Origin: Thermoanaerobaculia bacterium
GTDB lineage: Bacteria; Acidobacteriota; Thermoanaerobaculia; UBA5066
Reading direction: 5' to 3'
DNA length: 64,000 nucleotides
NCBI GenBank assembly: GCA_963816185.1
Contig: CAWFJJ010000024.1
Location: forward strand, 32,001 to 96,000
The notes beneath the pieces are model-generated. The model did no database searches, was not told the DNA's origin, and worked only from the letters and a program-made list of their open reading frames with translations. The position numbers were made by a program, and so were the translations under genes. Below are positions 6,457 to 48,637 of this stretch, one piece after another (the stretch's first letter is position 1; each line of letters begins with the position of its first letter).

Positions 6457-6478
6457 CGATTCGGTCTATTCCTCGCCG

Positions 6479-7741: not shown

Positions 7742-7748
7742 GCGAGTC

Positions 7749-10180: not shown

Positions 10181-10229
10181 TCTTAATAATATCGTGATCA
10201 TAGGGCGGGCTCGGTATGATAAAAAGATC

Positions 10230-11453: not shown

Positions 11454-11460
11454 AGGGACG

Positions 11461-11529
11461 AAAAAGGGGACACCTCCTAACTTCCGCAAAGCCAGTAGCG
11501 GAGCGAAAACCAGGAGGTGTCCCCTTTTT
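11461..11529. repeat. 69-bp element with perfect 18-bp terminal inverted repeats (REP/MITE-like or bidirectional terminator)
   Basis: AAAAAGGGGACACCTCCT (11461-11478) ... AGGAGGTGTCCCCTTTTT (11512-11529), between convergent argD and manC. Confidence 0.7.
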
Positions 11530-11544
11530 TCTCTTTTTCTCGGG

Positions 11545-12619: not shown

Positions 12620-12634
12620 GAGTTTACTGAACTC

Positions 12635-13373: not shown

Positions 13374-13397
13374 GTGGGGCTTTATTTGATATGGATC

Positions 13398-14279
13398 CTA
13401 CTTAATCGGATAGCCGTGGATCAGCATGAAGCTTCTGCGCCAGCGGGTCTTGCTAAAAAAATTCGTGGCAAGATCCCGAATGTGGTCGAGGCTGATGGAA
13501 GAGGTGTTGAGATCTTCGGTGGGGGCGTCGAAGGACCAGTAAATCACCAGCGGCTTGCCGATGATGTTCTCGCGCGGAACGAATCCCCAGTAGCGGCTAT
13601 CGAGCGAGGAATCGCGGTTATCGCCCATCGCGAAGTAGGAATTGGGCGGAACCACGACTTCGCCGTTGACCACGTGGTTCAGAAGCATGTCCGAGGCGCG
13701 GCGGTCGACGGAAACGTTGGGCTCGCCGGGGAAATTGTCGCGGTAAGAATCGATGTAATCGGACTTGTGATAGGTGTACGGCTCATCCAGGCGCACGCCA
13801 TTCAGGTACACCTGCTTGTTGATCACGCGGATGCGGTCGCCGGGCACGCCGATGCAGCGCTTGACGAAGGTCTGATTGATCTCGACCGGGTAGCGGAAGA
13901 CGATGATATCGCCGCGCTTCACATCGGTGTAGGGCAGCAGATACTTGCTCACCGGGCCGTAGGGAGCGAAGGCCAGCTTATCCACCAGCAGGTGGTCGCC
14001 GATCAGGAGCGTGTCTTCCATGGAACCGGTCGGAATCACGTAGGCCTGTACCAGGGTCGTGGTCAGGAACAGGAGCAGAAGGATGGTGATGGTCCATTCG
14101 GCGATAGTGCTGCGGGGGCGCTCATGATGGTGGTCTTCGGGTTCGACGATCGGTGTACCTTCCGTCGACGGCAGGCCGTTCAGCGGTGGCTCCGTCACTG
14201 GGACGGTGTAAGACGGGACCTCGGAAACTGTACCCGAACTCGAGGGCAGGGAAGGGTCCGTGGGATCTTGGGGGCTCAC
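13398..14279 (-). CDS. lepB: Signal peptidase I, copy 1
   Basis: IPTGSM, GDHLLVDK, FVKRC, MGDNRDSSLDSRYWGFVP; probable GTG start at 14279. Confidence 0.9.
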   Translation of the reverse strand: MSPQDPTDPSLPSSSGTVSEVPSYTVPVTEPPLNGLPSTEGTPIVEPEDHHHERPRSTIAEWTITILLLLFLTTTLVQAYVIPTGSMEDTLLIGDHLLVDKLAFAPYGPVSKYLLPYTDVKRGDIIVFRYPVEINQTFVKRCIGVPGDRIRVINKQVYLNGVRLDEPYTYHKSDYIDSYRDNFPGEPNVSVDRRASDMLLNHVVNGEVVVPPNSYFAMGDNRDSSLDSRYWGFVPRENIIGKPLVIYWSFDAPTEDLNTSSISLDHIRDLATNFFSKTRWRRSFMLIHGYPIK

Positions 14280-14662
14280 TACCTCTATCTTAGCGTGGCT
14301 TGCCCCAATGTGATAAACGCAGCGACAAAACGAACCCAAGAACCCCTTGAAACCAAAGGGTCGAGCATTTGGGAGGTGGATGTTTGGGCGAACGCTTTCA
14401 TAATCGGGGCCGTGGAGCGGGCTCCAGCGGGCACCATTGTGTCTCACCGCGCGTTCATCTCGCGCCCGTTGGGCGCAGCCAATTTAAGCTTCTCGGTACT
14501 AATCAAACGCCCGCTCGCACTTCCGCAACTGACCGTGCCCGACTTGGTAACGCTATTAGAATCTGAAGAGCGGGAATTACCAAAGGCGGCCGTGGTGGCG
14601 ATATAATCAACGGTGCTCGGGAACCCTAAATGGAAATTCCGCTGAGTACTGCTTGAGGCCAC

Positions 14663-15801
14663 ATGAACAGTCACATCTTGCGAGTTCTGCTGTTGTCGCC
14701 CGTCTTCTCCCTCCTGACGATGGCCCAGTCCCTCGAAGGAGTCTGGCAAGGGAACGTCACGATGCCGAATGCACCCGAAAGCCGCGCCGCGATCAGAGTC
14801 ACGCGCACCGACGGCTCTCTCGCGGGCGTCATGTTTCTGTTGGATACCAAGGTACAAATGCCTGTCGCCAACATCTCTCTGCGAGGCACCACCGCGAAGA
14901 TGTCTATCGCGGGCATGACCTATGAAGGCACGCTGAGCGCTGACGGCAACTCCATTGCCGGCAAGCTGACCATGGGAGCCAACTCCATGCCTATGCCATT
15001 AAAGCGCGCCACCTGGAGACAGCCTGGGAACTGCCGAAGCCGCCCGCGCTCCTCGCGAAAGATGTGCCGCTGGAATTCGTAGTCTCCACCATCAAACCCG
15101 CTCCCGACACCAACATCCCTTCCGGAACTTATGGCATCGGGGCTAGCAGCTACCAGGCCCACGGAGCCTCGCTGATCTACCTGCTGACCTTCGGCTTCAA
15201 CATGCACCCCAGACAATTCGTCGGTCTTCCTGGATGGGCGACCTCCGATCGCTACGAAGTCAACGCAAAGCTTCCTGAAGGAGGCAGGCCTACCGATGCC
15301 CAATTGCGCATCATGGTCCAGAACCTGGTGAAGGACCGCTTCGGGATCACCTTCCACATCGAAAAACGCGAACTCCCGGCCTACACGATTAATGTTGGCA
15401 AGGGCGGTTTGGCGGGCATCAAGATGACGAGGAGCGAATCTCAGGGGAGCAATGGCGGCGGCACCTTCCAGGGCTCCGTTCCCGGCACCGGCGTCATGAC
15501 CATGGGCAACGCCACCATGACCGATATGGCGAGTCTAATGCAACGCGTCATGCTCGACCGTCCCGTGGTCGACCAAAGCGGACTCACTGGCCGCTACAAC
15601 ATCGCTCTCAAATGGGCTCCGGACGACACGCAGTTCATCCAAATGAACCTCAGACTCGCCCCGCCTCCGGGAGCCGATCCCGATCCTCTACCCAACCTCG
15701 TGACCGCCTTCCAGGAGCAACTCGGCATGAAACTGGAGTCAACAAAAGCGCCTGTCGATGTCATCGTCATCGACAAAGTTTCGCGCCCGTCGGAGAACTG
15801 A
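14663..15801 (+). CDS. TIGR03435-like (Solibacter-type) exported protein with an extra N-terminal beta domain; indel near 15020
   Basis: FVVSTIKP, LPGWA.SDRY, MVQNL.KDRF, DRPVVDQSGL.GRY, AFQEQLGMKLE..KAPVDVIVIDKV.RPSEN. Confidence 0.82.
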
Positions 15802-15864
15802 CTAACAGACCGTCTTGGGTGAAGCCGTCTGCTCTTGTGATAGACGGTAAAGATATGTTATCGA

Positions 15865-16735
15865 CTACCAAGCCGCCGGACTTGGTCGAGACCGCTTAGG
15901 ACGCCCAATCTCATCTGGCGGTGAGGCTTCGCAGATAGGTACCGATAAACGCTTCTGTGAAGCGCCTGCGCCCGTGACCGATAGTTGTAGGAGGGGACGA
16001 GCTACCTTGCGATCAGGGCTCCATCCGCCAGACTGGGTTGCGATCCAGACAGGGTAGCGCGTTGGCTGTCTGAGCACCGCCGTTTCTTCCGCTACGAAAC
16101 TGGCCGGTGGAAATGGCGATCCGTACTGCACTTCCGGCAGGTTCATGAGCTTTCCGATCATCGATTGATAGAGACCCAGCCCCACCTGTTGTTCCGGAGG
16201 CAGGTACCAGCGGTGCAGTGAGTCCGCCATTTTCTTAAATTCGGCGATCAGTTGGTCACGCGGTATGTTGCGTCGGCCGGCCTCAGATAGCGTTTCGAGT
16301 GTTGTATCCACTGCCAGCAGCATGTTGCTCCGGCGCAGCACCAAGCCGGCGAGCAAGGCCGGATCGCCAGTTGTGGTGTCATCGGCGAAAACTCCCGCAG
16401 TGAGGACGGGTTCCGCGAAAAAACGAGTGCCGGGATTGCTCAAGCCGGGATTCATGCCCATGGACATGACCAGCCGTTCCTCACCCGGCAGCAGCGGTTT
16501 CGCGGCCGGCTCAATCAACGGATCGGAATACCTCACCAACGGCGCACTACTAGCGTTGGCGACTTTGAGGTACCCGCTTCGCAGCGACCACATAGGCCAC
16601 CAAACTGATCGCGGAATTGTTGCGAATTTTGACGTCGTCCAAGCCACTCGATCTATGGATCAGTGTGGTGGAGATCTGCGCATCCAATGAGAAGGCGCAT
16701 GCGAGCAGAGGTGCTAGCGAGATGACGGTTTTCAT
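15865..16735 (-). CDS. Hypothetical exported protein (indel near 16555)
   Basis: Signal-like MKTVISLAPLLACAFSLDAQ (16550-16735) joins the 15865-16647 ORF. Confidence 0.5.
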
Positions 16736-16985
16736 TCCGACTCTTCCTTGAGCGGCAGAATACCGTCATGATACCTCTCATAACGGAAAGAGGTCGGAAG
16801 AAAGTTCCTGGAGGTTGGGGATTTTTGCGCGGGGGCCAGGCGATCCTCAGCATAAGTGACCGCCCATGGGCACTAGCCAGATGTGCCTAGGGCTATTGGA
16901 CATAGCGTCGGATAATGGCCGTTTGTTGACAACGTTAGGACTTTGGAAGTCCCCGTGCCTTAGGAACTCCGAGGAGAACTGACAT

Positions 16986-17682
16986 ATGCGGAACACGCTC
17001 TCAGTCATTTTTGCAATTGCCGGTACTCTGAGCACCGCCGCCTTCGCGGCGGACAGGGAGATTAAGGTTACTGACCGGCTGGACGCTTCGGCCGACACAC
17101 TGTCCGATATGATGAAGGCCAGCGATAAGGGTATTCCCCAAGATTTGCTCGACAAGGCTAAATGCGTCGTGGTTATCCCCGGAATGAAAAAGGCCGGATT
17201 CATCTTCGGCGCGAAGTATGGCCAGGGATTTGCGGCCTGCCGCCGCAGCGGTGGCACCGGCTGGAGCGCTCCCGCCGCGATGCGCGTGGAAGGTGGAAGT
17301 GTGGGGTTTCAGATCGGCCTGTCGGAGACAGACGTTGTATTACTCGTTATGAATGATGGCGGTATGAAGCACCTTCTTTCCGACAAGTTTACGATCGGCG
17401 GAGACGCCACTGCAGCGGCAGGTCCGATTGGCCGCGCTGCCAGCGCCCAGACGGACGCGATGCTGAACGCGGAAATGCTGTCGTATTCCCGTGCGCGCGG
17501 ACTCTTTGCCGGCATCTCGCTGGAAGGCGCGACGCTTCGTCCGGATGAAGACACCAACCGGGAACTATACGGTCGCCAGGCAACGAATCGCGAAATTCTG
17601 ACTGGCGACTTCAAAACCCCCGCAAGCGCGGCAGACGTTTGAACGCCGGTTGAATCGGGAATCGCCCGTACGCGACAAGTAA
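16986..17682 (+). CDS. Lipid-binding SYLF (Ysc84-like) domain protein; end uncertain (17642 as read)
   Basis: IP..LL.KAKCVVVIP, KAGFIFG..YGQG, WSAP, GGSVGFQIG, AAAGPIGR, SYSRARGLFAGISLEGA; RBS GAGGAG. Confidence 0.88.
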
Positions 17683-17822
17683 CTCGGGAAAGGTCCCTTG
17701 GCACATTGACTGCGGGCCGTCAGGATGTGACGGTCCGGCAGTCTAGTGGCGAACTACGGTCGTGCCTCCGGCAAGCCTAACCGGCTTGTCAGCAGGCGCG
17801 ATTCGGAGTTTGTGGTGTGCGG

Positions 17823-25787: not shown

Positions 25788-25789
25788 GC

Positions 25790-26629
25790 ATGGCCGTTTC
25801 TTCCGTCGCCGCCGCCGGTCTCGCCTTCGCGATCGCTCTTGCGGACGGCGGGAAGTCCGTGCCGATCGACCGATTCACGCTGAAGGTGCCCGGCGTGAAG
25901 GGCGCTCTCGTCCTTTCGTTAGAAGGCGTCGACCTCATCGGCGGCGCCGTCGTCGCGCCCGTGCGCCTCGCGAACGAGACGGACTTCGACGTCCTTTCGC
26001 CGAGGATCGACCTCGTTTCCGTCACCGAGACGCGGCGCGAAGGCGGACGCGACGTGGCGCGCGCGCTCGATGCCGCGGCGCCTTTGCCGCCCGCCTGGGA
26101 CCTGCTTCGCAAGAGGACGGACGCCGCGGGGCAGCTCTTTCGGGCCTCTCCGGTCGGGTTCTCTCCGGACACCTCGCTCGTCGTGATCCTCGGGGCCGTG
26201 AGCGGCGCCCTCGCAGTGGGATCGTTCGAGGTCGAGGGTGCGAGAAACCCCGCCCGGCTCGACATCGATTCCGGCTCGCTCTTCGTCACGGACGCGTCGG
26301 GACGCATCGTCAGGTGCGCGCTCGACGGGCGCGGCGCCGCGGAAGTGAAGCAGCGGCCCCCGCAGAGGAGTGACCCGGCGGGAGGACCGTGCGCGCGAGC
26401 GCGCGTCCAGGCCCTCGTGTGCCGCACGGCGCCCGACGGCGGCGCCTGGGCGATCGAGGGGCGCGAAGTGACGCAGCTCGATGCCGAGGGAGGGAGAGTG
26501 CGTTCATTCCCCCCCGGGGGCGAAGGCCCGCCGGTCGCGCTGGCGCTCGGCCCGGACGGAAGGCTTTACGTGGCGACGGCGGGCGAAGGTGGAAGCAGCG
26601 GGTCCGTGCGGATCTTCAGGCCCTTCTGA
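25790..26629 (+). CDS. Hypothetical exported protein with NHL/propeller-like C-terminal blades
   Basis: ATG 2 nt after the helicase stop; hydrophobic N-terminus; P..LDID.GSLFVTD and PVALALGPDGRLYVA. Confidence 0.55.
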   Translation: MAVSSVAAAGLAFAIALADGGKSVPIDRFTLKVPGVKGALVLSLEGVDLIGGAVVAPVRLANETDFDVLSPRIDLVSVTETRREGGRDVARALDAAAPLPPAWDLLRKRTDAAGQLFRASPVGFSPDTSLVVILGAVSGALAVGSFEVEGARNPARLDIDSGSLFVTDASGRIVRCALDGRGAAEVKQRPPQRSDPAGGPCARARVQALVCRTAPDGGAWAIEGREVTQLDAEGGRVRSFPPGGEGPPVALALGPDGRLYVATAGEGGSSGSVRIFRPF

Positions 26630-26632
26630 CGG

Positions 26633-27040
26633 CTACTTTTTCAGGAGCAGATTGAAGTCCGCACGATAGAACGTGCGGCCCTGTCCGTCGCGCCGCGTCG
26701 GAATGACGAAGAGCGGGAAGCGGCCCATCTTCTCCTGCTCGACGGTATACGTGCCCTCGGCGAGGCGCTCGCCTCCGGGCGCGACGAACGTGAGCGAGAA
26801 CTGGTGCGTTCCGTTCGAAGAAGGTTTCTCGTCGTACGCCTCGAGGACGACGTCGATCGAGCCCCGTGAATCGGCCGTCTGGACGTGAAACGTCCGGCCG
26901 ACGTATTGCGCGAAGTTGCGGACCGGCGTGATCGAGCCCATCGCGCCCACGGCCTTCGTGGCCGCCGACAGCGGACGGACCGCCGCGCCGACGACACCGG
27001 TCACGACCGTGAAGAGGAATTTCTTGCGGGTGATTTTCAT
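26633..27040 (-). CDS. DUF6916-like protein with a Tat-like leader
   Basis: MKITRKKFL + hydrophobic stretch; F..YVG..F, FSLTF, L..GTY...G...LFVIP, Y.ADFN; GGAGG upstream. Confidence 0.7.
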   Translation of the reverse strand: MKITRKKFLFTVVTGVVGAAVRPLSAATKAVGAMGSITPVRNFAQYVGRTFHVQTADSRGSIDVVLEAYDEKPSSNGTHQFSLTFVAPGGERLAEGTYTVEQEKMGRFPLFVIPTRRDGQGRTFYRADFNLLLKK

Positions 27041-27079
27041 CGAAGACCTCCGGGGACGGTTTGTGCCACGATACGGCGC

Positions 27080-27376
27080 ATGCTCGAGAGCTTGACGTTC
27101 GGAGATTTCTCTGGAAGGGTCGGAGAGGGGTTTCGCCTCGAGGGACCCGCCGTCATCGTCGAGCTGACGCTTGTCGAGGTCACGGACCTCGCGCGGCGCG
27201 AAAAACCGGGTCCGCGGCGGTCGCCGTTTTCGCTCGTCTTCCACGGCCCGTTCAGCCCCGTAATGCCCCAGCGCACATACGCGCTCGAGCATGCCTCGCT
27301 CGGGCGCCTCGACATCTTCCTCGTACCGATCGGGCCCGACGCCGACGGCATGCGGTACGAGGCGGTCTTCAACTGA
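27080..27376 (+). CDS. DUF6916-like protein without a leader
   Basis: LT..DF...VG..F, L.LVEV, PFSLVFHGP, PQRTYALEH..LG.LDIFLVPIG, YEAVFN. Confidence 0.8.
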   Translation: MLESLTFGDFSGRVGEGFRLEGPAVIVELTLVEVTDLARREKPGPRRSPFSLVFHGPFSPVMPQRTYALEHASLGRLDIFLVPIGPDADGMRYEAVFN

Positions 27377-27872
27377 CTCTCGCCGCGGACACCGCGGGAC
27401 GCCGCTCCATCAGCAGATAGACGCCGTGCTCCTCGGCGGGCGCGAACCCGAGACGCTCGTAGAGACTTCGCGCGGGGTTCGACATCTCCACGTGGATCGT
27501 CAGGGTCACTTCGCGCCCCTTCGCTTCCGCGATGAGCTCGGCCAGGAGCCGCGTTCCGATTCCCGTCCCCCGGAACCGAGGCAGGAGAGCGATGTCCATG
27601 AGCCGGATCTCTCTCGGCCTGCGGTGGACATAGAGCCGCCCCACGGGCACCCCATCCACCTCGATCACGTCGTACGTCGCGCCTTCGTAGTGGGCGCGGT
27701 AATGCGCGTCCTGGGCGTCGAACTGCATCTTCACGAACGCGGCCTTCTGCTCGTCCGTCCAGGGCACCGGCGCCAGCTCCTCCGCGCGCGTCGACGCGTA
27801 CACGGAGAGGAGGAACTCCCGGTCGTCGGGGCGGACGGGGCGGAGGGTCACCATTCGTCGGGTGCTCCTCAC
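27369..27872 (-). CDS. GNAT N-acetyltransferase (tail-collar cassette type)
   Basis: YASTR.EE, MQF.AQ..HY, GRLYV, DIALLP.FRG.GIG, NPA.SLYERLGF. Confidence 0.88.
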   Translation of the reverse strand: MRSTRRMVTLRPVRPDDREFLLSVYASTRAEELAPVPWTDEQKAAFVKMQFDAQDAHYRAHYEGATYDVIEVDGVPVGRLYVHRRPREIRLMDIALLPRFRGTGIGTRLLAELIAEAKGREVTLTIHVEMSNPARSLYERLGFAPAEEHGVYLLMERRPAVSAARVS

Positions 27873-28384
27873 GTCCGCGGCGGGTAGACGCCCTGCAGGG
27901 CGATGCAGAAGTTGAGCGTGAGGTACGGCTGCATGTTGTTGTGCGGCTGGTCGGCGCCGGCCGGTGCGATCGCCTGCGAGCTGAGCTGCGTCACGGCGCC
28001 CGGCACGGCGTAGGCCCCGATTCCGATGCCCTTGGCCAGCAACTCGTTCCCGGCATTCGTGTCCACCCCATCTGCCTTGGAAGCCTGGAGCCCGTGCGAA
28101 TGCGAAGGGATCTCCGACTCGAGCAGGGTAACGGTCTCGCTCCCGCCGGTCTCGCCGAGATCGTGGAGCGAGAGGCCGGGACCCTGTCCCGGGTGCATCG
28201 GCGCGTTGCCTTGCATGTTCGGGAGCGCGAAGTTGCTCCTCCCGTCCCCGCCGTACGTCGTCCCAAGCAGGGAGAACAGCGCCGTGTTCTGCGAGAGAGG
28301 CAGGATCTGGCCGTCGCAGAACGCCCAGCCCGCTGGGGCGAAGTTGAACGGGAAGATGCGGATTTCGGCGACGAATGGGTCCAT
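27869..28384 (-). CDS. Phage tail-collar domain (microcystin-dependent protein-like), copy 3
   Basis: PFVAEIR.F..NFAP.GW..CDGQ.LP.SQN.ALFSLLGTTYGGDG..NFALP, HSH, HNNMQPYL..NFCIALQG.YP. Confidence 0.9.
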   Translation of the reverse strand: MDPFVAEIRIFPFNFAPAGWAFCDGQILPLSQNTALFSLLGTTYGGDGRSNFALPNMQGNAPMHPGQGPGLSLHDLGETGGSETVTLLESEIPSHSHGLQASKADGVDTNAGNELLAKGIGIGAYAVPGAVTQLSSQAIAPAGADQPHNNMQPYLTLNFCIALQGVYPPRT

Positions 28385-28393
28385 GGCGTCTCC

Positions 28394-28903
28394 TCAGGTC
28401 TGTGACGGGAAGATGCCGAAGAGAGAAATGATGAAGTCGACGCAGAGGTACGGCTGGAAGTTCGTGTGAGGCTGGCTTCCTCCCGTGCTGCCGACGGCGG
28501 ACGGGCTCAGCGGGGTCAGAGGCGCATCGGTGCCGTACGGGGTGATCGCGGCGTTCGGAGACTTCGCGGGGAGCTGGCCCTGGGGGGCGGTGCCCGTCGC
28601 GGGATTGTTCGACGCGAGAAACGCGTGTGAGTGCGCCGGAATCTGGCTGACCGTCAGGGTGATCTCCTCCACGCCGCCCGTCTCCGCGAGCGTAAAGCCG
28701 TTCCCGAAGTGGAGCGGGACACGACCGCGCAGGTCGGGCAGCGCGAACGTGGACTGCCCGTCGCCGCCGTACGTCGTGCCGATCAGGTTGAAGAGCGTTT
28801 CGTACTCCGAGATCGGCAGGAGCTGGCCTTCGCAGAACATCCAGCCCGCGGGCGCGAAGTTGCCCGCGAACATCCGGATCTCACCGACGTAAGGCTGGGC
28901 CAT
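28394..28903 (-). CDS. Phage tail-collar domain protein, copy 2
   Basis: PYVGEIRMFAGNFAP.GW..CEGQ, LIGTTYGGDG..TFALPDLRGR, HSH, QPYL..FIISLFGIFP. Confidence 0.9.
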   Translation of the reverse strand: MAQPYVGEIRMFAGNFAPAGWMFCEGQLLPISEYETLFNLIGTTYGGDGQSTFALPDLRGRVPLHFGNGFTLAETGGVEEITLTVSQIPAHSHAFLASNNPATGTAPQGQLPAKSPNAAITPYGTDAPLTPLSPSAVGSTGGSQPHTNFQPYLCVDFIISLFGIFPSQT

Positions 28904-28913
28904 CGCGTGCCTC

Positions 28914-29417
28914 CTAGGTCTGGCTCGGGAAGATGCCCTGGAGGGCGATCGAGAAGTTCAGGACGAGGAACGGCTGCATGTTGAGGTGCGCCTGCGAGCC
29001 GCCCACGTTGGCGAGGGCGTTGGGGGCCATGGCCACGGGGTTGCCGGAGCCGTAGAGCTGGGCCCCGGCGGACTGCGCGAGCATGACGTTCGACGCCGGG
29101 ACGTTCGTCGACGCGACCGCGCTGACCGCATTGGCGACGTGCGCATGCGTGGGGATCTCCGAAATCGAGAGCGTGTGGGCCTGCTCGCCGCCTTGCTCTC
29201 CGAGGGTGTGGCCGTTCCCCATGTGGATCGGGGCGCGCCCCTGCAGATTGGGAAGCCCGAAGTTCACGCGCCCGTCTCCTCCGTAGGTCGTGCCCAGCAG
29301 CGAGAACAGCGCCTGGTTCTGATTGATCGGCAGGAGCTGGCCGTCGCAGGTCGCCCAGCCCTTCGGTGGGAAGCCGAAGCTCATGATCCGGATCTCGGCG
29401 AGGAAGGGTTCCGCCAT
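28914..29417 (-). CDS. Phage tail-collar domain protein, copy 1
   Basis: PFLAEIR, P.GW..CDGQLLPINQNQALFSLLGTTYGGDG, HAH, NMQPFL.LNFSIALQGIFP; RBS GAGGAG. Confidence 0.9.
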   Translation of the reverse strand: MAEPFLAEIRIMSFGFPPKGWATCDGQLLPINQNQALFSLLGTTYGGDGRVNFGLPNLQGRAPIHMGNGHTLGEQGGEQAHTLSISEIPTHAHVANAVSAVASTNVPASNVMLAQSAGAQLYGSGNPVAMAPNALANVGGSQAHLNMQPFLVLNFSIALQGIFPSQT

Positions 29418-29434
29418 CGCTGTTTCTCCTCGTG

Positions 29435-32400
29435 TTAGAAGCCGCCGGGTTCGACGCAGGTCGAGAACCCGCTCGTGGCGGAGATGAGGGTCGTGCCGCC
29501 GACGCCGAAGTTGCCGGGCGCGCTCCCCGGGTTCTGGCTGTTCACGTAGTTCTCGACGTCCGGCGTCGACGTCGACCCGCCGGGCAGGCCGACGATTCCG
29601 AACGCGTTGATCGCGGAATTCGTCCCCTGCTTGCGGAGGCCGATGCCGGAGGCGATGAAGCCGCCTCCGCTGTCACCCGCCGTCGTGTTGCCCGTGATCT
29701 CGAGGCATACGGTCTCGTTGGCGCTGGAAGCGCTGCCGGAAGAGACGCGAATGCCGAACGTCGTCCCGCTTCCCGAGGTCGGGGCCGCGACGGTGTTCGT
29801 CCGGATCCTCACGTGCGCCTGGCCGGTCGCGCCGATCGTGTTGACGAGGATACCGTTCCCGTCCGTCTGGCTGATGTTGTTCGCGCCGCCGGCCGTGCCG
29901 TCGCCGATGCTCAGGTTCAGGACGGGCGTGTCGCTCGACGAGAACGTGCTCGTCGTGCCGCCGCCGATCCCGGCGCTGCTGAAGATGTTGTGCGCGACGA
30001 TCGTGTTTCCGGCGATCGTGCCGGTGTACGTCGTGAGGCCGTTCGATCCGAAGCCGATCCCGAGTCCCTTCACGTTCGTGATCGAGTTGTTCGTGATGAC
30101 GAAGAACCCGGTGCCGCGGCCGTTGAGCGCCGTGTTGATCCCCTGCGTCCCCATCTGGTTGGCCGCGCTCTGTCCCGAGATCACGTTGTTCGTGATCGCG
30201 ATCGCGTTCGTCGAGAGGTCGGACCCGTACGTCCCCGCGGGCGCGAGGGTGCTCGTCGCGTTTCCGCCGAGGAACAGGATCCCCGCGTCGCTCGGGAAGT
30301 TCGTGATCGTGTTCCCGTTGATCGTAGCCTTCGAGTAGCTCGCGACGGTGGACGCCGAGCCGAAGCCCACGAGCCGGATCGCCGATCCCTTCGACGCCGT
30401 CGTGAGCGTGCTGCTCGTGAGCGTGTTGTTCGAGATGTTCGTGTTGCTGATCGTGCCGTCGAACTGGAAGACGTCCACGCCGTGGTAGTAGGCGTTCGTC
30501 AGCGTGCTGCCCGTGATCGTCAGCGTTCCCGTGAGGTTCTTCTCGTTGCCGATCGTGGGCGAGTAGGCGCCGGCGTTGAAGGCGATGTTCGAGTCTCCGG
30601 TTCCGCTGGCGGTACCGGAGTTGTTGATCGTGCCGTTGACGAAGCTGAACGTCTGGACGTTATTGGATCCCTTCACGCCGCTGTGCCCCGTGTTCTGGAT
30701 GCTCATCGAGGTGAGCGAGACGCTCTGGGCGTTCGACAGGAGGACACCGTCTCCGGTCACGCTCTGGATCGTGCCGCCCGTCCCCGCGCCCCCCGTCCCC
30801 GTGACGGTGAAGCTGCCCGTCGAGTTCTGCAGGACGATGCCGTTGGCGCCCCCGTTCGCGGACACGGCCTGGAAGGTGAACGCGCCTCCGGCGGCGTTCA
30901 GCGACACCGCCGTGCCGGTCGTCGTCGTCACCGTGACGCCGTTCTGCACGGTCGCGCCCGTGATCGCGCCCGAGTTCGTCACGCCCGTGCTCGAGCCCGC
31001 GCTGACGTCGAGGGAGCTGACCGTGAGCGTGTTCGCCGCGAGCGTGAGAGTCGAATTGAGCGTGGGCTTGCCGCCCGCGCCGATCGTGAGGGGCCCGAGC
31101 GTGAACGTCGTGCCCTGGCCCCAGAGCGTCAGGCCGGCCTTGTTCAGCGAGGCGCCCGCGTAGTTGGACGAGCCCGTGTGCAGGAAGATCGTCTGGTTCG
31201 CAGAGGCGTTCGTCACCGCCTGCGCGACCGTCGCGAGAGGCTCGTGCGACCGCCCGCGCGAGGCCGAGTCGGAGCCGCCCGAGTTGTTCACGTACCAGAC
31301 CATGCCGGTCAAGGTGACGTTCAAGGGCGCGGTCGCGCTCGCGGGCGTCCCGGTCCCGCCGCTGTCGCTTGAGACCGTATAGGTGCACGTCGAGGACGTC
31401 GCGCCCGCGTTCGGCGTGTAGACGAAGCGGCCGAGTCCGTCGAAGGTCGAGATGGCCGCGCCGGCGGTGCAACCCGCGGCGGTCACGGTGACGCTGCCGG
31501 CCGGCTGGGCCGACGTGAGGAGCCCCGACACCGTCGCGACGGCGGGAGTCGTCGGCGCGCCTGTGACGCCGGTGACGTAGAGCTGCGTGTTCCCGACGCC
31601 CGAGTAGGTCTGCGTCACGATCGCGGGTGCGACCGAGAGCGTGTAGGTGCCGCTCGTTCCGAAGCAGCCGTTTGCGTCGGTCGCCTTCACCGTGATCGTG
31701 AACGTGCCGGTCTGGGTCGGCGTGCCGGTGAGGACACCGGCGGTCGAAAGCGAGACACCCGTCGGGAGGGAGCCCGTCGTGAGGGTGAACGTCGCGGGCG
31801 TGTGCGTCCCGACGCCCGACTGCGTAAACGTGAAATTGCCGGCTGGGGCGAGCGCCGTGTTGTACGTCGCGATCGTCGAGGTCGGGTTCGAGACCGTGAT
31901 CGTCTGGCAGGAGATCACGAGCGTGTAGGTCGCGCCCGTGCCCGTGCAGCCGTTCGCGTCCGTCACCGTGACGACGATCGGGAACGTGCCGGACGAAGAG
32001 GGCGTGCCGGAGAGGACGCCCGCGGCCGACAGGGTCAGCCCGGCCGGGAGCGTCGAGGATGTCGTGAACGTCGCCGGCGTGTGCGTGCCGACGCCGGCCT
32101 GGGTGAACGTCTGGCTGAACGGCGCGTCGACGGTGCCCGTCGTCGTTCCGGGGTTCGAGACCGTGATCGTCTGGCAGGAGATCACGAGCGTGTAGGTCGC
32201 GCCCGTGCCCGTGCAGCCGTTCGCGTCCGTCACCTTGACGACGATCGGGAACGTGCCGTTCTGTCCCGGCGTGCCCGAGAGCGTTCCGTCCGCCGCGAGC
32301 GTCAGGCCGCCCGGGAGCGTCGAGGACGTCGTGAACGTCGCCGTGCCGGCCGCGCCGGTCTGCGTGAACGTCTGGTTGAAGGGGGCGTCGACCGTGCCCG

Positions 32401-34756
32401 TCGTCACGCCCGGGTTCGTGATCGTGATCGTCGGGCAGACGGTCACGAGGCTGTACGAGGTCGCGCCCGAGCAGCCGGCGGCGTCGGTCGCGGTGACGAC
32501 GATCGGGAAGGTGCCGCCCTGCGTCGGCGTGCCCGAGAGAACGCCGGCCGAGAAGGTCATCCCGGCGGGCAAGGCGCCCGTCTCCGTGAGCGTGTAGGGC
32601 GACGTCCCGCCGCTCGCCGTGAACGTCACGGGGCCGTACGGCGAGCCGACGGGGCCCGAGGCGAGCGTCGGGGGCGCGACGGTGATCGTGACGCCGTTAC
32701 ACGTCACGGTGACCACGTAGTCCTGGCTCCCGACGCAGCCGCCGACCGAATCGGTCGCCGAGATCGTGATCGGGAACGTCCCGGTCTGGGTGGGCGTCCC
32801 GTCGAGAGTGGCGCCGGTGAAATTCATGCCCGTCGGCAAGGAGCCGGCCTCGGCGAACGTGTAGGGCCCCGTTCCGCCGCTCGCCGTGAACGTCGTACTC
32901 GGGAAGGGTGAGCCGGCCAGGACGGTCGGCAGCGAGCTCGGCGAAAGCGTTATGGACGTCCCCGAGCAGGCCACGACCACGAGGTAGTCGCGGCTCGCCG
33001 TGCAGCCGTTCGAATCCGTGACGGTGACCGTGATCGGGAAGCTCCCGGTCTCGGTCGGCGTGCCCGCGAGCGTGTCGATCGAGAAGCTCATCCCGTTCGG
33101 GAGGGCGCCCGTCTCGGAGAACGTGACGGAGCCGATGCCGCCTGTCTGCGTGAACGTCGTCGCGGGGTACGGGGTGCCGGTCGTTCCCTGCGGGAGCGTC
33201 GCGGGAGACAGGGTGATCGACTGGCAGCTCACGACGAGCGTGTACGTCGCGCTCGTCCCCGTGCAGCCGTTCGCGTCCGTGACGGTGACGCCGATCGGGA
33301 ACGAGCCGGTCTGACCGGGCGTGCCCGACAGCGTCCCGTTCGCCGCGAGGGACATTCCCGACGGGAGCGTCGACGCCGTCGTGAACGTCGCGCCGCCGAT
33401 CGCGCCCGTCTGCGTGAAGGTCTGGCTGAACGCGGTGCCGATGGTCGCGGTCGCCGTCGCGGGGTTCGTGACGACGATCGTCTGGCAGCCGATCGAGAGG
33501 TTGTAAGTCGAGCTCGTGCCCGTGCAGAGGTTCGCGTCCGTGACCGTCACGACGATCGGGAAGAGGCCGGTCTGGGTCGGCGTTCCCGCGAGGACGCCGT
33601 TCACGGCGAGATTCAGCCCGGCCGGAAGCGTCGACGCGGTCGTGAATGTCGCCGATCCGATCGCGCCGGCCTGCGTGAACGTCTGGCTGAACGCCGTACC
33701 GGCCGTTCCGGCGGCCACGGCCGGGTTCGTCACCGTGATCGTCTGGCAGGCGATGACGAGGTGGTACGTCGCGCCGCTGCCCGTGCAGCCGTTCGCGTCG
33801 GTCGCCGTCACGAGGATGTCGAAGCCGCCCGCCTGCGTCGGCGTGCCCGAGAGGACGCCGTTCGCCGCGAGCGTCATGCCGATCGGAAGGGCGCTCGCCG
33901 TCGTGAACGTCGTCGCCCCGACGCCACCCGCCTGCGTGAACGTCTGGCTGAAGAAGACGTTTGCCGTGCCCGTCGCCGTCACGGGGTTCGTCACGGTGAT
34001 GGTCTGGCAGGAGATCACGAGCGTGTACGTCGCGCCCGTCCCCGTGCAACCGCTCGCGTCGGTCGCGGTCACGGTGATCGGGAAGGTGCCCGGCTGGGTC
34101 GGCGTGCCCGAGAGCGTCCCGTTCGGAGCGAGCGTCAGGCCGGCGGGCAGCGGCGACGCCGTCGTGTACGTCTTCGTCCCCGTGCCGCCGGAGGACGTGA
34201 AGGTCTGGCTGAACGGCACGTTGACCGTGCCCGACGCCGTCAAGGGGTTCGTCACCGTGATCGTGCTCGTGCACGCCGGGACCCAGTAGCCCGAGATGTC
34301 GATGATGAAGTCGGCCGCCCCCGCCGAGACGTTCGCGAGCGCGACGGTACCCGTGTTGTCGCTCGCAAGGGCCACGATCGTGTTGCTCGCGCGGGTCTTG
34401 CCCGCCGAGAAAGCCAGGACCAGCGTCGGGGGTGCCGCCGCATCGCCCGCATAGAGCTGCGCGTAGCCCATTTCCGCCGGCGAGACGACGGTGAGGTTGA
34501 CGGCCAGGCCTAGGGCGGTCGGCGGCACGCCGCAGGCTCCCGTGAGCGTGAAGAGACGTGTCTCGTTCGGATTCAGGGCGGGGCCTCCCAGAGGGTCTGC
34601 CGGGTTCCGCGTGTCGACCGCTCGGCAGGGAGAGATCGTCATGAGGGCTTGGCCCCCGGCCGCGGAGAGAGGGAGCGGCAGGGAAAGCAGCGCCAGCGCG
34701 ACGACGAGAAATCCCGGACGGGGAAGTGAACGGTCCTCGCGGTCGAGCAGTCTCAT
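29435..34756 (-). CDS. Giant exported protein: N-terminal PCRxxDTR-type domain, ten putative-Ig (He_PIG-like) repeats, C-terminal beta-helix-like region
   Basis: 1773-aa ORF with a signal peptide, repeats LP.G..L...G.LSGTPT..GTF.I.V..TD.NGC, then VWYVNN...PLATV and an Asn/Gly/Thr-rich solenoid pattern. Confidence 0.88.
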   Translation of the reverse strand: MRLLDREDRSLPRPGFLVVALALLSLPLPLSAAGGQALMTISPCRAVDTRNPADPLGGPALNPNETRLFTLTGACGVPPTALGLAVNLTVVSPAEMGYAQLYAGDAAAPPTLVLAFSAGKTRASNTIVALASDNTGTVALANVSAGAADFIIDISGYWVPACTSTITVTNPLTASGTVNVPFSQTFTSSGGTGTKTYTTASPLPAGLTLAPNGTLSGTPTQPGTFPITVTATDASGCTGTGATYTLVISCQTITVTNPVTATGTANVFFSQTFTQAGGVGATTFTTASALPIGMTLAANGVLSGTPTQAGGFDILVTATDANGCTGSGATYHLVIACQTITVTNPAVAAGTAGTAFSQTFTQAGAIGSATFTTASTLPAGLNLAVNGVLAGTPTQTGLFPIVVTVTDANLCTGTSSTYNLSIGCQTIVVTNPATATATIGTAFSQTFTQTGAIGGATFTTASTLPSGMSLAANGTLSGTPGQTGSFPIGVTVTDANGCTGTSATYTLVVSCQSITLSPATLPQGTTGTPYPATTFTQTGGIGSVTFSETGALPNGMSFSIDTLAGTPTETGSFPITVTVTDSNGCTASRDYLVVVACSGTSITLSPSSLPTVLAGSPFPSTTFTASGGTGPYTFAEAGSLPTGMNFTGATLDGTPTQTGTFPITISATDSVGGCVGSQDYVVTVTCNGVTITVAPPTLASGPVGSPYGPVTFTASGGTSPYTLTETGALPAGMTFSAGVLSGTPTQGGTFPIVVTATDAAGCSGATSYSLVTVCPTITITNPGVTTGTVDAPFNQTFTQTGAAGTATFTTSSTLPGGLTLAADGTLSGTPGQNGTFPIVVKVTDANGCTGTGATYTLVISCQTITVSNPGTTTGTVDAPFSQTFTQAGVGTHTPATFTTSSTLPAGLTLSAAGVLSGTPSSSGTFPIVVTVTDANGCTGTGATYTLVISCQTITVSNPTSTIATYNTALAPAGNFTFTQSGVGTHTPATFTLTTGSLPTGVSLSTAGVLTGTPTQTGTFTITVKATDANGCFGTSGTYTLSVAPAIVTQTYSGVGNTQLYVTGVTGAPTTPAVATVSGLLTSAQPAGSVTVTAAGCTAGAAISTFDGLGRFVYTPNAGATSSTCTYTVSSDSGGTGTPASATAPLNVTLTGMVWYVNNSGGSDSASRGRSHEPLATVAQAVTNASANQTIFLHTGSSNYAGASLNKAGLTLWGQGTTFTLGPLTIGAGGKPTLNSTLTLAANTLTVSSLDVSAGSSTGVTNSGAITGATVQNGVTVTTTTGTAVSLNAAGGAFTFQAVSANGGANGIVLQNSTGSFTVTGTGGAGTGGTIQSVTGDGVLLSNAQSVSLTSMSIQNTGHSGVKGSNNVQTFSFVNGTINNSGTASGTGDSNIAFNAGAYSPTIGNEKNLTGTLTITGSTLTNAYYHGVDVFQFDGTISNTNISNNTLTSSTLTTASKGSAIRLVGFGSASTVASYSKATINGNTITNFPSDAGILFLGGNATSTLAPAGTYGSDLSTNAIAITNNVISGQSAANQMGTQGINTALNGRGTGFFVITNNSITNVKGLGIGFGSNGLTTYTGTIAGNTIVAHNIFSSAGIGGGTTSTFSSSDTPVLNLSIGDGTAGGANNISQTDGNGILVNTIGATGQAHVRIRTNTVAAPTSGSGTTFGIRVSSGSASSANETVCLEITGNTTAGDSGGGFIASGIGLRKQGTNSAINAFGIVGLPGGSTSTPDVENYVNSQNPGSAPGNFGVGGTTLISATSGFSTCVEPGGF
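31884..32258. repeat. Near-identical ~108-bp direct repeat within the Ig array (copies at 31884 and 32151)
   Basis: GGGTTCGAGACCGTGATCGTCTGGCAGGAGATCACGAGCGTGTAGG...GGAACGTGCCG occurs twice, 267 bp apart, with one mismatch. Confidence 0.8.
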
Positions 34757-35002
34757 CAGGTGGAGCCCTTTCCTCGTCGAGCCTCGACGTCGTACGGGAT
34801 CTGTGTGCCGAATCGGAACCGTGAGCCGAGCTCCACGTCGCGATCGACTTCTTCTCCCTCTCGCTTCGGATTACCGGCGAGATCCTATCTCAAGTCGGGA
34901 TTCTCGACGAGCCCTTTGAACTCCCTCTCCAGCGGGACCTGATTCATTTGCGGCATACCGCCGGAACCGGCCGGCCGGTACCTTGACACTGGAGGTTCCC
35001 GC

Positions 35003-47972: not shown

Positions 47973-48579
47973 GGACGGGGTAGGGTCCTTTCGAGACGGG
48001 GTACTGCGCGACCAAGAAAACGTCTCCTCCGGCGGTTTTCCAGATCCAGGCGAGGAGCCGCGTCGTGAGCGTGATGGAGGCGTCGTAACACTCCCGGCGC
48101 GTGCCGGACGGCAGCGCCGCCGCCGCGAGCTTCTCGGGCGCGGCGAACGGCTCCGGCGAAAAGCCCAGGAAACGGGCGCCCGCCGACGTGTCCGCGGCGG
48201 GTCCGGCGGCCGGCGGGAACGCCATCGCGAACTCGTGGACGATCCCGCCTGCCTGGTAGGAGATCCCGTCGAAAGGCGTGTGGCGGCGGATCGACTCCGC
48301 CAGAGCGCGCGCGCCGCGGGCCGCGGCGGCGCGATGCGCGGCCGCGTCGCGAGTGCCGGCCTCGGCGGCGGCCGCGTCGCGCACGCCCTGCATGAGGCGC
48401 CGCGAGTGTTTCGCGAGCTGACGCTTGAAATCCGGCGGCGCAAAGGAGGCCGCGTCGGCCGCCATCCTCGCTTCCTCGGCGACGCCCCAGCGCACCGGCT
48501 CGGCGGTGCGGGCGGGAGCGGTAGAGAGCACGAGCGCAAACACGGCGGCGAGTGAACCGGGAGGCAAGCGGCAGCGCAT
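47965..48579 (-). CDS. Hypothetical exported helical protein
   Basis: Signal-like N-terminus; stop overlaps the purH start; weak resemblance to the Zn-dependent PLC/S1-P1 fold. Confidence 0.55.
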   Translation of the reverse strand: MRCRLPPGSLAAVFALVLSTAPARTAEPVRWGVAEEARMAADAASFAPPDFKRQLAKHSRRLMQGVRDAAAAEAGTRDAAAHRAAAARGARALAESIRRHTPFDGISYQAGGIVHEFAMAFPPAAGPAADTSAGARFLGFSPEPFAAPEKLAAAALPSGTRRECYDASITLTTRLLAWIWKTAGGDVFLVAQYPVSKGPYPVRE

Positions 48580-48637
48580 CGCGCCGCGATTGTACGGGTC
48601 GCGGCGTAGACTCCGCTTACGTACGGAGTTGGACGGG

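Follow-up and report, generated by a model that had tools for sequence, protein, structure and literature searches.

Why would a bacterial genome keep three phage tail-collar genes side by side with the gene for a giant exported protein? The question is raised by a cassette within a 64,000-nt stretch of DNA (hereafter, the window), whose parts are listed in Table 1. The best overall explanation, to which we assign a probability of roughly 0.5, is that the cassette is a mobile, phage-independent surface module made of fiber tips, with a heterotrimeric knob.

Table 1. Features of the accessory island, given as positions in the 64,000-nt window.
Feature	Position	Strand	Evidence
Accessory island	25789..34937	n/a	9.15-kb indel; site empty in two congeners
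279-aa ORF inside the island	25790..26629	+	Sub-threshold SSL_N match
Long DUF6916, 135 aa	26633..27040	-	PF21880, 1.4e-18; signal peptide
Short DUF6916, 98 aa	about 27080..27376	+	PF21880, 6.2e-32
GNAT acetyltransferase, 167 aa	27369..27872	-	Acetyltransf_1, 1.2e-15
colC, 171 aa	27869..28384	-	Collar, 2.8e-27; HSH
colB, 169 aa	28394..28903	-	Collar, 2.8e-30; HSH
colA, 167 aa	28914..29417	-	Collar (PF07484), 1.9e-26; HAH
Giant exported protein, 1773 aa	29435..34756	-	He_PIG, E 2.9e-88 (Pfam)
Upstream non-coding end of island	34757..34937	-	Position only

The cassette occupies an accessory island situated between the deaD stop codon and the region upstream of a 2-oxoacid:ferredoxin oxidoreductase gene. 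In two congeners (G246:C157 and G095:C242), the site is empty: the flanks, 88–92% identical in nucleotides to those of the window, are joined with ~33 bp between them, and the intervening segment is therefore an indel. No direct repeats were seen where the junction was aligned with the congeners. Distribution in the genus is patchy, with the cassette present in two of the four genomes searched, the window's own included. The original prediction had the giant gene, the three collars and the GNAT in a single co-oriented run, with the two DUF6916 genes after it. The run from giant to GNAT stands, with spacings of 17, 10 and 9 nt between the giant gene and the successive collars and a 4-nt overlap of the colC stop with the GNAT start. 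The long DUF6916 gene is co-oriented with it, but the short one, with the stronger match, is convergent with the GNAT gene and overlaps it by 8 nt. The promoter of the run presumably lies in the non-coding end of the island, where a sigma-70 scan found nothing. The 279-aa ORF, for which comparison with the ORFs of the other loci gave a single homolog (L104), is probably a passenger outside the conserved cassette. Across the window's own genome, three Collar and two DUF6916 matches were found in total, every one inside the cassette, and their clustering is therefore not a matter of chance. As predicted, phage genes were not encountered nearby: the 44 window ORFs (24 flanking and 20 further) contain no phage, sheath, capsid, terminase, portal, tube, baseplate or integrase family.

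The set also recurs far beyond this genome, in several phyla, bearing out an expectation that had accompanied the locus from the start. Profile searches of 301 genomes of the phylum located DUF6916 in 27 and Collar in 41, and in 25 of the 27 genomes with DUF6916, Collar matches are no more than 5 kb away along that contig, judged by coordinates. When the colB alignment was used for a scan, at least 603 stretches were confirmed, of 609 matches listed. Wide loci were drawn from the best 80 of these, which are the most like colB and hence biased to this subtype; they are labelled Acidobacteriota, Verrucomicrobiota, Chloroflexota, Pseudomonadota, Bacteroidota, Actinomycetota and Eremiobacterota, or at least seven phyla. 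Three or more collars are present in 76 of these best 80 loci. Within 5 kb, a GNAT is found in 67 and a DUF6916 in 66, and 62 have an ORF of 1000 aa or longer no more than 1.5 kb away; the 18 with no large ORF at that distance, partly explained by contig ends, count against the best explanation. Plasmids carry the cassette as well, in 84 records; each of the 15 listed has three places, annotated "tail fiber protein". For example, pAA01 of Aminobacter aminovorans and the megaplasmid of Ruegeria sp. TM1040 hold the giant, three collars, the GNAT and a convergent DUF6916. Several loci count against the best explanation, namely triplets lacking DUF6916 or GNAT (e.g., G022, G199, L029–L032 and L054), a DUF6916 without collars (G041), and second DUF6916 copies elsewhere in two genomes (G034 and G064). 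A phage-free set of giant, collars, GNAT and DUF6916 thus recurs in bacteria of many phyla, and a literature search found no published description of the cassette.

The collars themselves proved to be what had been claimed, three paralogues of ~170 aa, each with a single HxH motif and no signal-like N-terminus. Their Pfam Collar scores (92.2, 104.5 and 94.9 bits for colA, colB and colC) exceed the gathering cut-off of 24, and colA is a complete fiber-tip module, consisting of the Collar domain, the HAH motif, variable loops and conserved C-terminal strands. In the PDB, colB matches phage fibers only (8kec, 1ocy, 9nxk and 5iv5), with E values of 3.4e-05 to 2.6e-04 for T4 gp12 chains; colC adds a weak match to T4 Gp10_C (4.5e-05, below cut-off). 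An HxH follows the collar domain in all 85 collars examined from 30 loci. In tips of the T4 gp12/gp37 type, HxH motifs from three chains bind a metal ion. Conservation is uneven along the chain: the majority-residue fraction is 0.75–0.97 over residues 1–90, falls to 0.30–0.57 over residues ~95–140, a variable loop region of ~45 residues in each collar, and returns mostly to 0.77–0.91 from residue ~141, with a short final block of 0.53 in colC. There is no shaft, as the proteins start three residues before the Collar domain. When only collars with a Met three residues before the conserved Pro are counted, position 2 holds Ala or Ser in 96/98 colA, 93/105 colB and 78/78 colC proteins. The absence of a signal peptide from all three sequences counts against the best explanation.

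On sequence grounds, the three collars are old paralogues, 49–56% identical to one another, while the orthologue medians are 66–72% (109 loci). The array is compact (median inter-collar gap 13 nt, n=219) and its order is A-B-C in 68 of the best 80 loci, with four more reading ABCABC; the B-A-C order of six of the 30 phylum loci counts against the best explanation. A tree of 85 collars groups them by array position: labels change 18 times, a number that 0 of 200 shuffles reached (shuffled mean 40.7). Its B-type clade is poorly resolved (38 rows of mixed positions, SH-aLRT 84), and divergent triplets group by genome, again a count against that explanation.

The giant protein is also much as first described, an exported Ig/beta-helix protein. 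Behind an N-terminus that, judged by eye, resembles a Sec signal come an N-terminal domain of ~130 aa, ten He_PIG Ig-like repeats, a Big_9-like "mid" domain (~residues 1050–1300), and a predicted right-handed beta-helix with a C-terminal domain (~1300–1773). A model of residues 1260–1773 (pLDDT 80.4) consists of stacked all-beta coils, and its best Foldseek rows are GH110, GH87, the RbmB lyase, the PfbA adhesin and phage tailspikes, at E values of only 1e-3 to 0.1. Pfam Beta_helix is found in four of 21 related giants and is absent from the window's own. Among large ORFs of other loci, 56 share the mid domain and 47 the beta-helix, and 34 of the 73 with complete C-termini share the final 250 aa. 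The proposed link between giant and collars gains support from the beta-helix core, which has 16 matches in 14 of the 301 genomes, one of them the single match in the window's own genome; 14 of the 16 lie on a collar contig, adjoining collar triplets.

The GNAT scores 58.3 bits against PF00583 (cut-off 20.7). It was rejected as a RimI equivalog (TIGR01575, 47.8 bits vs 86.4; NF007025, 31.2 vs 173), and among solved chains it comes closest to the N-terminal acetyltransferases 6wqb/6wqc and to RimI; these matches are weak (E 6e-7 and worse), cover the cofactor core only and count against the best explanation. Both DUF6916 proteins pass the PF21880 cut-off of 27, with 110 bits for the short form and 67.2 for the long one. 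The short form lacks a signal peptide and is modelled as a small split beta-barrel (pLDDT 90.8). Foldseek returned nothing for this model at E <= 0.001; its resemblance to YcgR-N/PilZN domains (5ejl, 5y6f, 5y6h, 3kyf and 5vx6; rmsd 2.1–2.7 Å over 82–87 of 98 residues) is borderline, since a Z of 8.0–8.7 is a level commonly reached by unclear models, and this too counts against the best explanation. Such domains are protein-protein adaptors beside a second domain; DUF6916 is just 8–13% identical to them in sequence and has no PilZ partner domain. The predicted joint action of GNAT and DUF6916 is borne out by gene fusions: eight of 26 longer DUF6916 proteins are fused to a GNAT, and the enzyme makes up the N-terminal part and DUF6916 the C-terminal part of all four fusions checked. 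A further eight of the 26 are fused to a SAM-methyltransferase, which also counts against the best explanation. The long form is preceded by a Shine-Dalgarno sequence (GGAGG) and has T-R-K-K-F-L in its signal n-region, that is, R-K-K instead of R-R. The Tat consensus in this region is S/T-R-R-x-F-L-K. Orthologous long forms in other loci carry signals of the [ST]-R-R-x-F-L type, and an RR lies upstream of the domain in 35 of 128 DUF6916 ORFs. By a crude regular expression, 61 of 423 ORFs near collars are Tat-like, compared with 14 of 361 farther away; a Tat-like neighbor in only 58 of 109 loci and the R-K-K of the window's own long DUF6916 count against the best explanation. Together, the split barrel, the GNAT fusions and the twin-arginine long forms suggest a modifying and escorting role for DUF6916.

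How these parts would cooperate can be outlined conditionally. The giant protein would be exported by Sec, displaying its Ig-like repeats and tailspike-like beta-helix outside the cell. The collars, as shaft-less copies of phage fiber tips, would fold in the cytoplasm and join 1:1:1 into a heterotrimeric knob centered on the HxH motifs, which may hold a metal, and the variable loops could bind surface glycans, LPS or exopolysaccharide for instance. A two-part enzyme that modifies proteins would be made up of the GNAT and the short DUF6916; the latter would be the barrel that docks the substrate, most likely the collars at their invariant Ala/Ser-2 N-termini. The signal-bearing DUF6916, of Tat type in many relatives, would work outside the cytoplasm and possibly escort the folded knob across the membrane. 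Knob and giant, presumably in contact, would together make an adhesin or recognition device, and the cassette would be horizontally mobile and independent of phages. A more specific version, which we regard as rather unlikely, has DUF6916 as a collar-recognition barrel used twice. The short form would dock the GNAT, in the cytoplasm, onto three clustered N-termini at the proximal pole of an A-B-C knob for acetylation, and the signal-bearing form would then carry the folded, metal-loaded heterotrimer through Tat as a hitchhiker to sit, outside the cell, on the giant's conserved beta-helix core, so that the collars need no signal peptide of their own. If so, the cassette would be a horizontally swappable, phage-independent receptor-binding head for giant bacterial adhesins in many phyla.

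It is conceivable that the collars instead form three separate homotrimers, each with its own specificity, and serve the cell as alternative knobs. In favor of this, every paralogue retains an HxH of its own, some loci have just one or two collars (L031 and L032), one virophage-like triplet (L122) consists of three near-identical copies, and the solved relatives are so described, T4 gp12 in 1ocy and 5iv5 and gp37 in the relevant portion of a 2025 report (PMC12724248). However, if the specificities were independent, changes in copy number and gene conversion would be expected, whereas one of each type is kept in fixed order in most of the best 80 loci and the paralogues are less alike than their cross-phylum orthologues. 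Moreover, one paralogue of each kind in fixed order is the very signature that the same portion of that report gives for a virophage triplet with demonstrated heterotrimer formation (PMC12724248). The paralogue pattern and this precedent therefore favor a heterotrimeric, glycan-binding knob, and homotrimers are a possible but doubtful alternative.

Three further explanations were considered. The collars could be an intracellular sensor or decoy, for example against phages, or a GNAT-modified glycan- or metal-binding factor, with the giant a mere neighbor; collars, GNAT and short DUF6916 all lack signal peptides, and about half of the loci lack a Tat-like neighbor. This is unlikely, as the giant's beta-helix core is almost confined to collar neighborhoods, signal-bearing DUF6916 paralogues are common, the variable loops are placed where phage tips bind external receptors, and the anti-phage defense models of PADLOC matched none of the seven cassette proteins. 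A mobile, patchy island with variable target-binding loops would also suit an antagonistic, bacteriocin-like lectin system, in which the knob hits competitors and the GNAT provides self-protection, but none of the cassette proteins has a toxin, nuclease, pore or peptidase domain according to Pfam and the GNAT is coupled by fusion to DUF6916 rather than to a toxin, which makes this quite improbable. Finally, the cassette might be the remnant of a prophage, tailocin or contractile injection system, in line with the match of the collars to phage tail-fiber families over nearly their full length (colB with phrog_9116, E 4.9e-29) and with four IMG/VR contigs bearing A/B/C-type collars (L116, L117, L119 and L120). 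Against this stand the lack of phage-structural or integrase families in the window, an island of just 9.15 kb with a single passenger ORF beyond the cassette, the intactness of every cassette gene, and the same phage-free set in 60 or more of the best 80 loci across phyla. The decayed prophage that the original prediction had named as its undoing is not what the congeners' empty site and the missing phage families point to, and a phage remnant is a largely refuted and very remote prospect.

The preferred reading, a surface module with a heterotrimeric knob, can finally be set beside known systems. The published heterotrimeric Collar triplets go beyond the original prediction, as do the DUF6916 gene on the opposite strand and the signal peptide on the other DUF6916; its interpretation as a whole is partly supported. 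The closest counterpart is the virophage DSLV2, whose tripartite tail proteins, according to the report on them (J Virol 2025; PMC12724248), co-purify as a 1:1:1 heterotrimer and bind LPS. As in the cassette, they are three consecutive, co-oriented PF07484 proteins of ~170–250 aa that are closer to the same array position elsewhere than to their own neighbors, but the DSLV2 genes adjoin capsid genes in a virophage (PMC12724248). Virophage-like IMG/VR triplets, which no GNAT, DUF6916 or giant accompanies, have an N-terminal extension of ~24 aa (L118, L121 and L124) or of at most one residue (L122), and in a quick tree those of L118, L121 and L122 group in a clade apart (SH-aLRT 94). Common descent with the cassette was accordingly rejected, and the virophage-like genes therefore reflect a separate triplication. 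The T4 gp12/gp37 tips (1ocy and 5iv5; 2XGF according to PMC12724248) likewise pass from a Collar domain to an HxH and head region, but they are homotrimers on long shafts in a virion, whereas the cassette encodes three shaft-less, phage-free paralogues. Free-standing bacterial Collar proteins without an assigned function are a further parallel, including the COG4675 "microcystin-dependent protein" (MdpB) and RhiB of the Rhizobium rhiABC genes. COG4675 proteins have been detected in soil metaproteomes, as one excerpted study reports (PMC5579227), and RhiB carries a phage tail collar domain, while RhiA and RhiC lack Pfam domains, in the section of the source concerned (PMC13133039). Unlike the cassette, rhiABC is controlled by quorum sensing, and that section describes no triplet with GNAT, DUF6916 and giant (PMC13133039). 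Finally, the excerpted account of a shufflon (NAR 2023; PMC9881135) proposes that a PilV-tail-collar fusion is a surface-binding tip recognizing recipient LPS. There, a single fused pilin tip is diversified by inversions, with no modifying enzymes in that account, but in both systems a phage Collar domain would have been repurposed by bacteria (PMC9881135).

The gene set described in the original prediction, a giant exported repeat protein of 1773 aa together with three tail-collar paralogues, a GNAT and two DUF6916 genes (here termed the cassette), was found in the window by ORF calls and Pfam searches, so that the earlier observation is confirmed and, as detailed below, extended. Transcription on the minus strand proceeds from the giant protein through the three Collar genes, named colA, colB and colC in that order, to the GNAT. 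As initially read, each collar possesses a single His-x-His (HxH) motif behind its Collar domain (HAH, HSH and HSH), and inspection of the three sequences by eye revealed no signal peptide in any of them. The DUF6916 pair said to follow the run is also present, but only the long copy is co-oriented with it; the better-scoring short copy sits on the plus strand, where it converges on the GNAT with an 8-nt overlap. The long copy is preceded by a GGAGG ribosome-binding site, and the n-region of its signal peptide reads T-R-K-K-F-L. NCBIfam gave no name to any cassette protein, its sole matches being weak, sub-threshold ones on the GNAT, and PADLOC had no match to the cassette proteins. A promoter and terminator scan was uninformative, with no promoter-like sites and one terminator-like site, on the plus strand within the giant gene, versus 3.8 expected. 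Four DNA sequencing runs from one study contain 0.31–0.41 of the sampled words, and no RNA runs are listed.

Genes of the cassette and the further ORF within its island (window positions)
Feature	Position	Strand	Best Pfam match
Giant protein, 1773 aa	29435-34756	-	He_PIG, 10 repeats, E 2.9e-88
colA, 167 aa	28914-29417	-	Collar PF07484, E 1.9e-26
colB, 169 aa	28394-28903	-	Collar PF07484, E 2.8e-30
colC, 171 aa	27869-28384	-	Collar PF07484, E 2.8e-27
GNAT, 167 aa	27369-27872	-	GNAT, E 1.2e-15
Short DUF6916, 98 aa	about 27080-27376	+	DUF6916, E 6.2e-32
Long DUF6916, 135 aa	26633-27040	-	DUF6916, E 1.4e-18
279-aa ORF	25790-26629		

The source genome (5.09 Mb in 30 contigs) has three Collar and two DUF6916 matches in total, all inside the cassette. 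Two congeneric genomes lack it; in both, the end of deaD lies ~33 bp from the oxidoreductase upstream region, and the flanks share 88–92% nucleotide identity with the window. Because these two genomes of the same genus show an empty site, window 25789-34937 (9.15 kb) is taken as one indel unit, at whose junction no direct repeats were seen. The 279-aa ORF within this island was considered as a cassette member and rejected; it has one homologue across all other loci compared and is therefore treated as a passenger. The annotation “tail fiber protein” borne by such collars could hint at a phage where none exists, and a prophage remnant is excluded here by the neighbouring genes: the window’s 44 other ORFs, which are housekeeping (including DeaD, KdsA-like, PilT-like ATPase, oxoacid:ferredoxin oxidoreductase, CTP synthase, KdsB and RecA) or lack assignment, include no match to phage or injection-system families, in keeping with the claim that no phage structural or integrase gene is nearby. 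Elsewhere in the window, positions 1-17800 have a GC content of 0.585–0.638, below that of the remainder (0.636–0.715), and several ORFs there cover only part of a Pfam profile (for example an aminotransferase, 125–402 of 403; SpoIIE, 13–191 of 192; and two fragments of signal-peptidase S26), which could represent broken genes, frameshifts or chimeric assembly. Two ORFs adjoining recA, 48425-50119(+) of 564 aa and 50116-53163(-) of 1015 aa, have no Pfam match.

Across 301 genomes of the phylum, DUF6916 was detected in 27 and Collar in 41, and comparison of printed coordinates placed a Collar gene at most 5 kb away on the same contig in 25 of the 27 DUF6916 genomes; of the other two, G124 has a Collar 17 kb away and G041 has none. 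Second DUF6916 copies off the collar contig were seen at G034:C17:32849-33121 and G064:C23:1455443-1455715. Thirty phylum loci, selected on Collar or DUF6916 matches, five of them as exceptions, were mapped with our own ORF caller plus BLAST and HMMER; at least three collars were present in 25, a GNAT within 5 kb in 24, a DUF6916 within 5 kb in 23, and an ORF of 1000 aa or longer within 1.5 kb in 22. A wider scan, in which the colB alignment was run against one genome per species, confirmed at least 603 of at least 609 stretches. The best 80 of these at least 603 loci, which share 60–83% identity with colB, are biased toward its subtype and several end at contig ends; at least three collars occur in 76 of the 80, a GNAT in 67, DUF6916 in 66 and a large ORF alongside in 62. 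By record title they span at least seven phyla, namely Acidobacteriota, Verrucomicrobiota, Chloroflexota, Pseudomonadota (Mesorhizobium, Sphingomonas, Chiayiivirga, Contendobacter and others), Bacteroidota (Flavobacterium phragmitis, Saprospiraceae), Actinomycetota (Nocardioides) and Eremiobacterota, and the survey thus substantiates the suggestion that the neighbourhood recurs in many bacteria. A plasmid collection contained 84 matching records, and each of the 15 listed matches at three places, every one bearing the annotation “tail fiber protein”. For example, pAA01 of Aminobacter aminovorans KCTC 2477 (AA2016_RS29755-RS29785) and the megaplasmid of Ruegeria sp. TM1040 (TM1040_RS01845-RS01875) both carry a giant gene, three collars, a GNAT and a DUF6916 in the same convergent orientation as in the window; the cassette is also present in Deinococcus ficus, and all three carriers are culturable and non-pathogenic. 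Five kinds of gene make up this conserved, mobile and phage-free module. No account of the bacterial cassette, and no paper on DUF6916, turned up in searches of the open-access literature.

Several variations on the arrangement were observed. In Alphaproteobacteria, including the two plasmids just named, a hypothetical protein of 400–490 aa lies between colC and the GNAT (L230:11071-12555, L231:11126-12343, L100:9064-10377 and L101:9063-10379), one with a weak FG-GAP match. Two Contendobacter MAGs have an inserted gene for a GT4 glycosyltransferase, also matching the “GT4-conflict” family, that separates the DUF6916/GNAT pair from the collars (L060:9681-10880 and L071:9681-10880). Four loci (L062, L080, L110 and L113) possess two complete A-B-C triplets apiece, and DDE and IS200-like transposases occur within or beside the cassette (L067:9211-10290 and L089:9135-10028).

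The three collars of the window are 49–56% identical to one another, and their best counterparts over 109 loci have median identities of 66–72%, values that point to old paralogues of which one of each has been retained. A quick maximum-likelihood tree of 85 collars grouped them by position in the array: label changes numbered 18, shuffling gave a mean of 40.7, and none of 200 shuffles came as low. The A clade comprises 21 rows, 19 from position 1 (SH-aLRT 94), and the C clade 16 rows, all from position 3 (SH-aLRT 91), plus a second group of five; the B assemblage (38 rows, SH-aLRT 84) is less clean, and within it the triplets of some divergent lineages group by genome. When the collars were typed by their best BLAST match, 68 of the 80 wide loci read A-B-C and four more ABCABC; of the 30 phylum loci, 16 read A-B-C and six B-A-C. 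Consecutive collar genes are separated by a median of 13 nt (interquartile range 11–19, n = 219). The HxH occupies the identical place in all 85 collars. Majority-residue fractions are mostly 0.75–0.97 over residues 1–90 and from about 141 to the C-terminus, a short final block of colC falling to 0.53, and are low (0.30–0.57) at residues of about 95–140, right behind the HxH. By sequence, the solved relatives are phage fibres only (8kec, 1ocy, 9nxk and 5iv5), and PHROG tail families align across nearly the entire collar length, for which reasons each collar is regarded as a whole fibre tip without its shaft. Alignments to phage fibres suggest that the variable segment would correspond to the receptor-binding head of phage tips.

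The giant protein, too, is by its conservation part of the set. All 21 large neighbour proteins compared bear Ig-like repeats from varied families (He_PIG, Big_9, Cadherin_4/5, DUF7933, DUF11, Big_3_5, PKD and SpaA), and four have a Pfam Beta_helix match. Large ORFs matching residues 1050–1300 of the window’s giant, where a Big_9-like domain runs into the beta-helix cap, number 56, and 47 match residues 1300–1520. In giants encoded upstream of colA this shared core lies near the C-terminus, and in those encoded downstream of colC near the N-terminus (about 150–1100); the last 250 residues are common to 34 of 73 large ORFs with complete C-termini (single linkage, E < 1e-8). A profile of the core had 16 matches in 14 of the 301 phylum genomes at E <= 1e-10, including one in the source genome, and 14 of the 16 lie on a collar contig within about 9 kb. 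Residues 1260–1773 were modelled as a right-handed beta-helix (pLDDT 80.4, pTM 0.87) whose best fold matches, at weak E-values of 1e-3 to 0.1, are all beta-helices: GH110, GH87, the RbmB lyase, chondroitinase B, the PfbA adhesin and the CBA120, Sf6 and P22 tailspikes. A signal-like N-terminal segment was detected in 40 of 65 giants with complete N-termini, using a crude pattern that overlooks obvious cases.

DUF6916 is a large family (9,503 clusters at 50% identity, E <= 1e-3) with length classes near 100 aa and near 140–150 aa. Its model is a six-stranded barrel (pLDDT 90.8) for which Foldseek found nothing at E <= 0.001 in PDB or BFVD, weaker rows being tail-tube, Hcp and VgrG-like proteins; an ESM Atlas search returned DUF6916 clusters only, and an exhaustive aligner ranked the N-terminal domains of YcgR-N/PilZN first, at a borderline level (Z 8.0–8.7, rmsd 2.1–2.7 Å, 82–87 residues). 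Of the 26 DUF6916 proteins exceeding 183 aa, eight are fused to a GNAT and eight to a SAM methyltransferase (weak PrmA-like matches), with the enzyme N-terminal and DUF6916 C-terminal in all four checked, and many loci carry adjacent GNAT-DUF6916 or GNAT-DUF6916-GNAT genes. This Rosetta-stone evidence of fusion and adjacency argues for joint action of the short DUF6916 and the GNAT. A metagenome scan with one methyltransferase-DUF6916 fusion, P0015, yielded 32 loci that matched in the methyltransferase part only; DUF6916 and collars were both absent from them, and their C-terminal regions seem unrelated. GNAT-bearing ORFs of 340–390 aa in some loci proved to have over-extended starts rather than to be longer proteins. 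The nearest solved relatives of the GNAT are N-terminal acetyltransferases and RimI, through weak matches to the cofactor-binding core only. The collars start exactly three residues ahead of a conserved Pro (M-A-E-P, M-A-Q-P, and M-A-D-P or M-D-P), and where Met stands at that distance it is followed by Ala or Ser in 96 of 98 colA, 93 of 105 colB and 78 of 78 colC sequences. Given RimI-type substrate rules and those of methionine removal, the collar N-termini, with their fixed Ala/Ser-2, may be the most attractive candidate substrate for the GNAT.

A conceivable export route is provided by the twin-arginine (Tat) system, which transports proteins in folded form and is able to take along partners that have no signal; on these grounds it is put forward, speculatively, for the collars. 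In many loci the long DUF6916 begins with an S/T-R-R-x-F-L signal followed by a hydrophobic stretch, an RR motif preceding the domain in 35 of 128 DUF6916 ORFs; the window’s copy has R-K-K in place of R-R. Moreover, other loci have, between colC and the GNAT, ORFs of 210–280 aa that bear twin-arginine-type signals and match no Pfam family. A crude pattern picked out one or more Tat-like ORFs within 3 kb in 58 of 109 collar loci, and such ORFs make up 61 of 423 near collars versus 14 of 361 farther off. Examples of 240–280 aa (L036:4297-5139, L040:6357-7139, L044:9036-9806, L007:10140-10865, L076:9108-9860 and L074:9040-9768) fall into several unrelated sequence groups.

Soil, water and plant-associated bacteria very commonly carry Collar “tail fiber proteins” and DUF6916. 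If a conserved five-part cellular module were shown, their annotation would be corrected, a large DUF would gain a function, and heterotrimeric fibre tips would have a second example, independent of the first. A testable question would follow as well: by what means a knob of phage type, already folded and lacking a signal peptide, undergoes modification, leaves the cell and becomes attached to giant surface proteins. Recognition, cell–cell or cell–surface, is a role suggested by the variable loops and by the island’s mobility.

The best reading is that the three collars would form a putative heterotrimeric knob, a fibre tip that binds glycan, which would work together with the exported Ig/beta-helix giant and may be matured by the GNAT-DUF6916 pair. 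Its main rival is that the collars form three separate homotrimers. A precedent for the heterotrimer comes from the virophage DSLV2, for which a 2025 paper (PMC12724248) describes consecutive PF07484 proteins with the same position-specific conservation, for which AF3 favours a heterotrimer, and which co-purify when one is tagged; they bind Synechococcus cells, and an anti-LPS antibody blocks the binding. Four “viral” IMG/VR contigs (L116, L117, L119 and L120) carry A-, B- and C-type collars, with a GNAT in three and a large ORF in two, L116 having neither. Virophage-like triplets were found in four others (L118, L121, L122 and L124). One of them, L122 (2137 bases), encodes three tandem 183-aa collars that are nearly identical (branch lengths 0.09–0.15), in contrast to the diverged A/B/C sets of the cassette. 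In a quick joint tree with weak deep support, L118, L121 and L122 form a clade of their own (SH-aLRT 94), and because of this separation the bacterial triplication looks independent of the virophage one. The bacterial collars keep position-specific conservation as the DSLV2 triplet does, and with independent triplications this solution would have evolved on at least two occasions.
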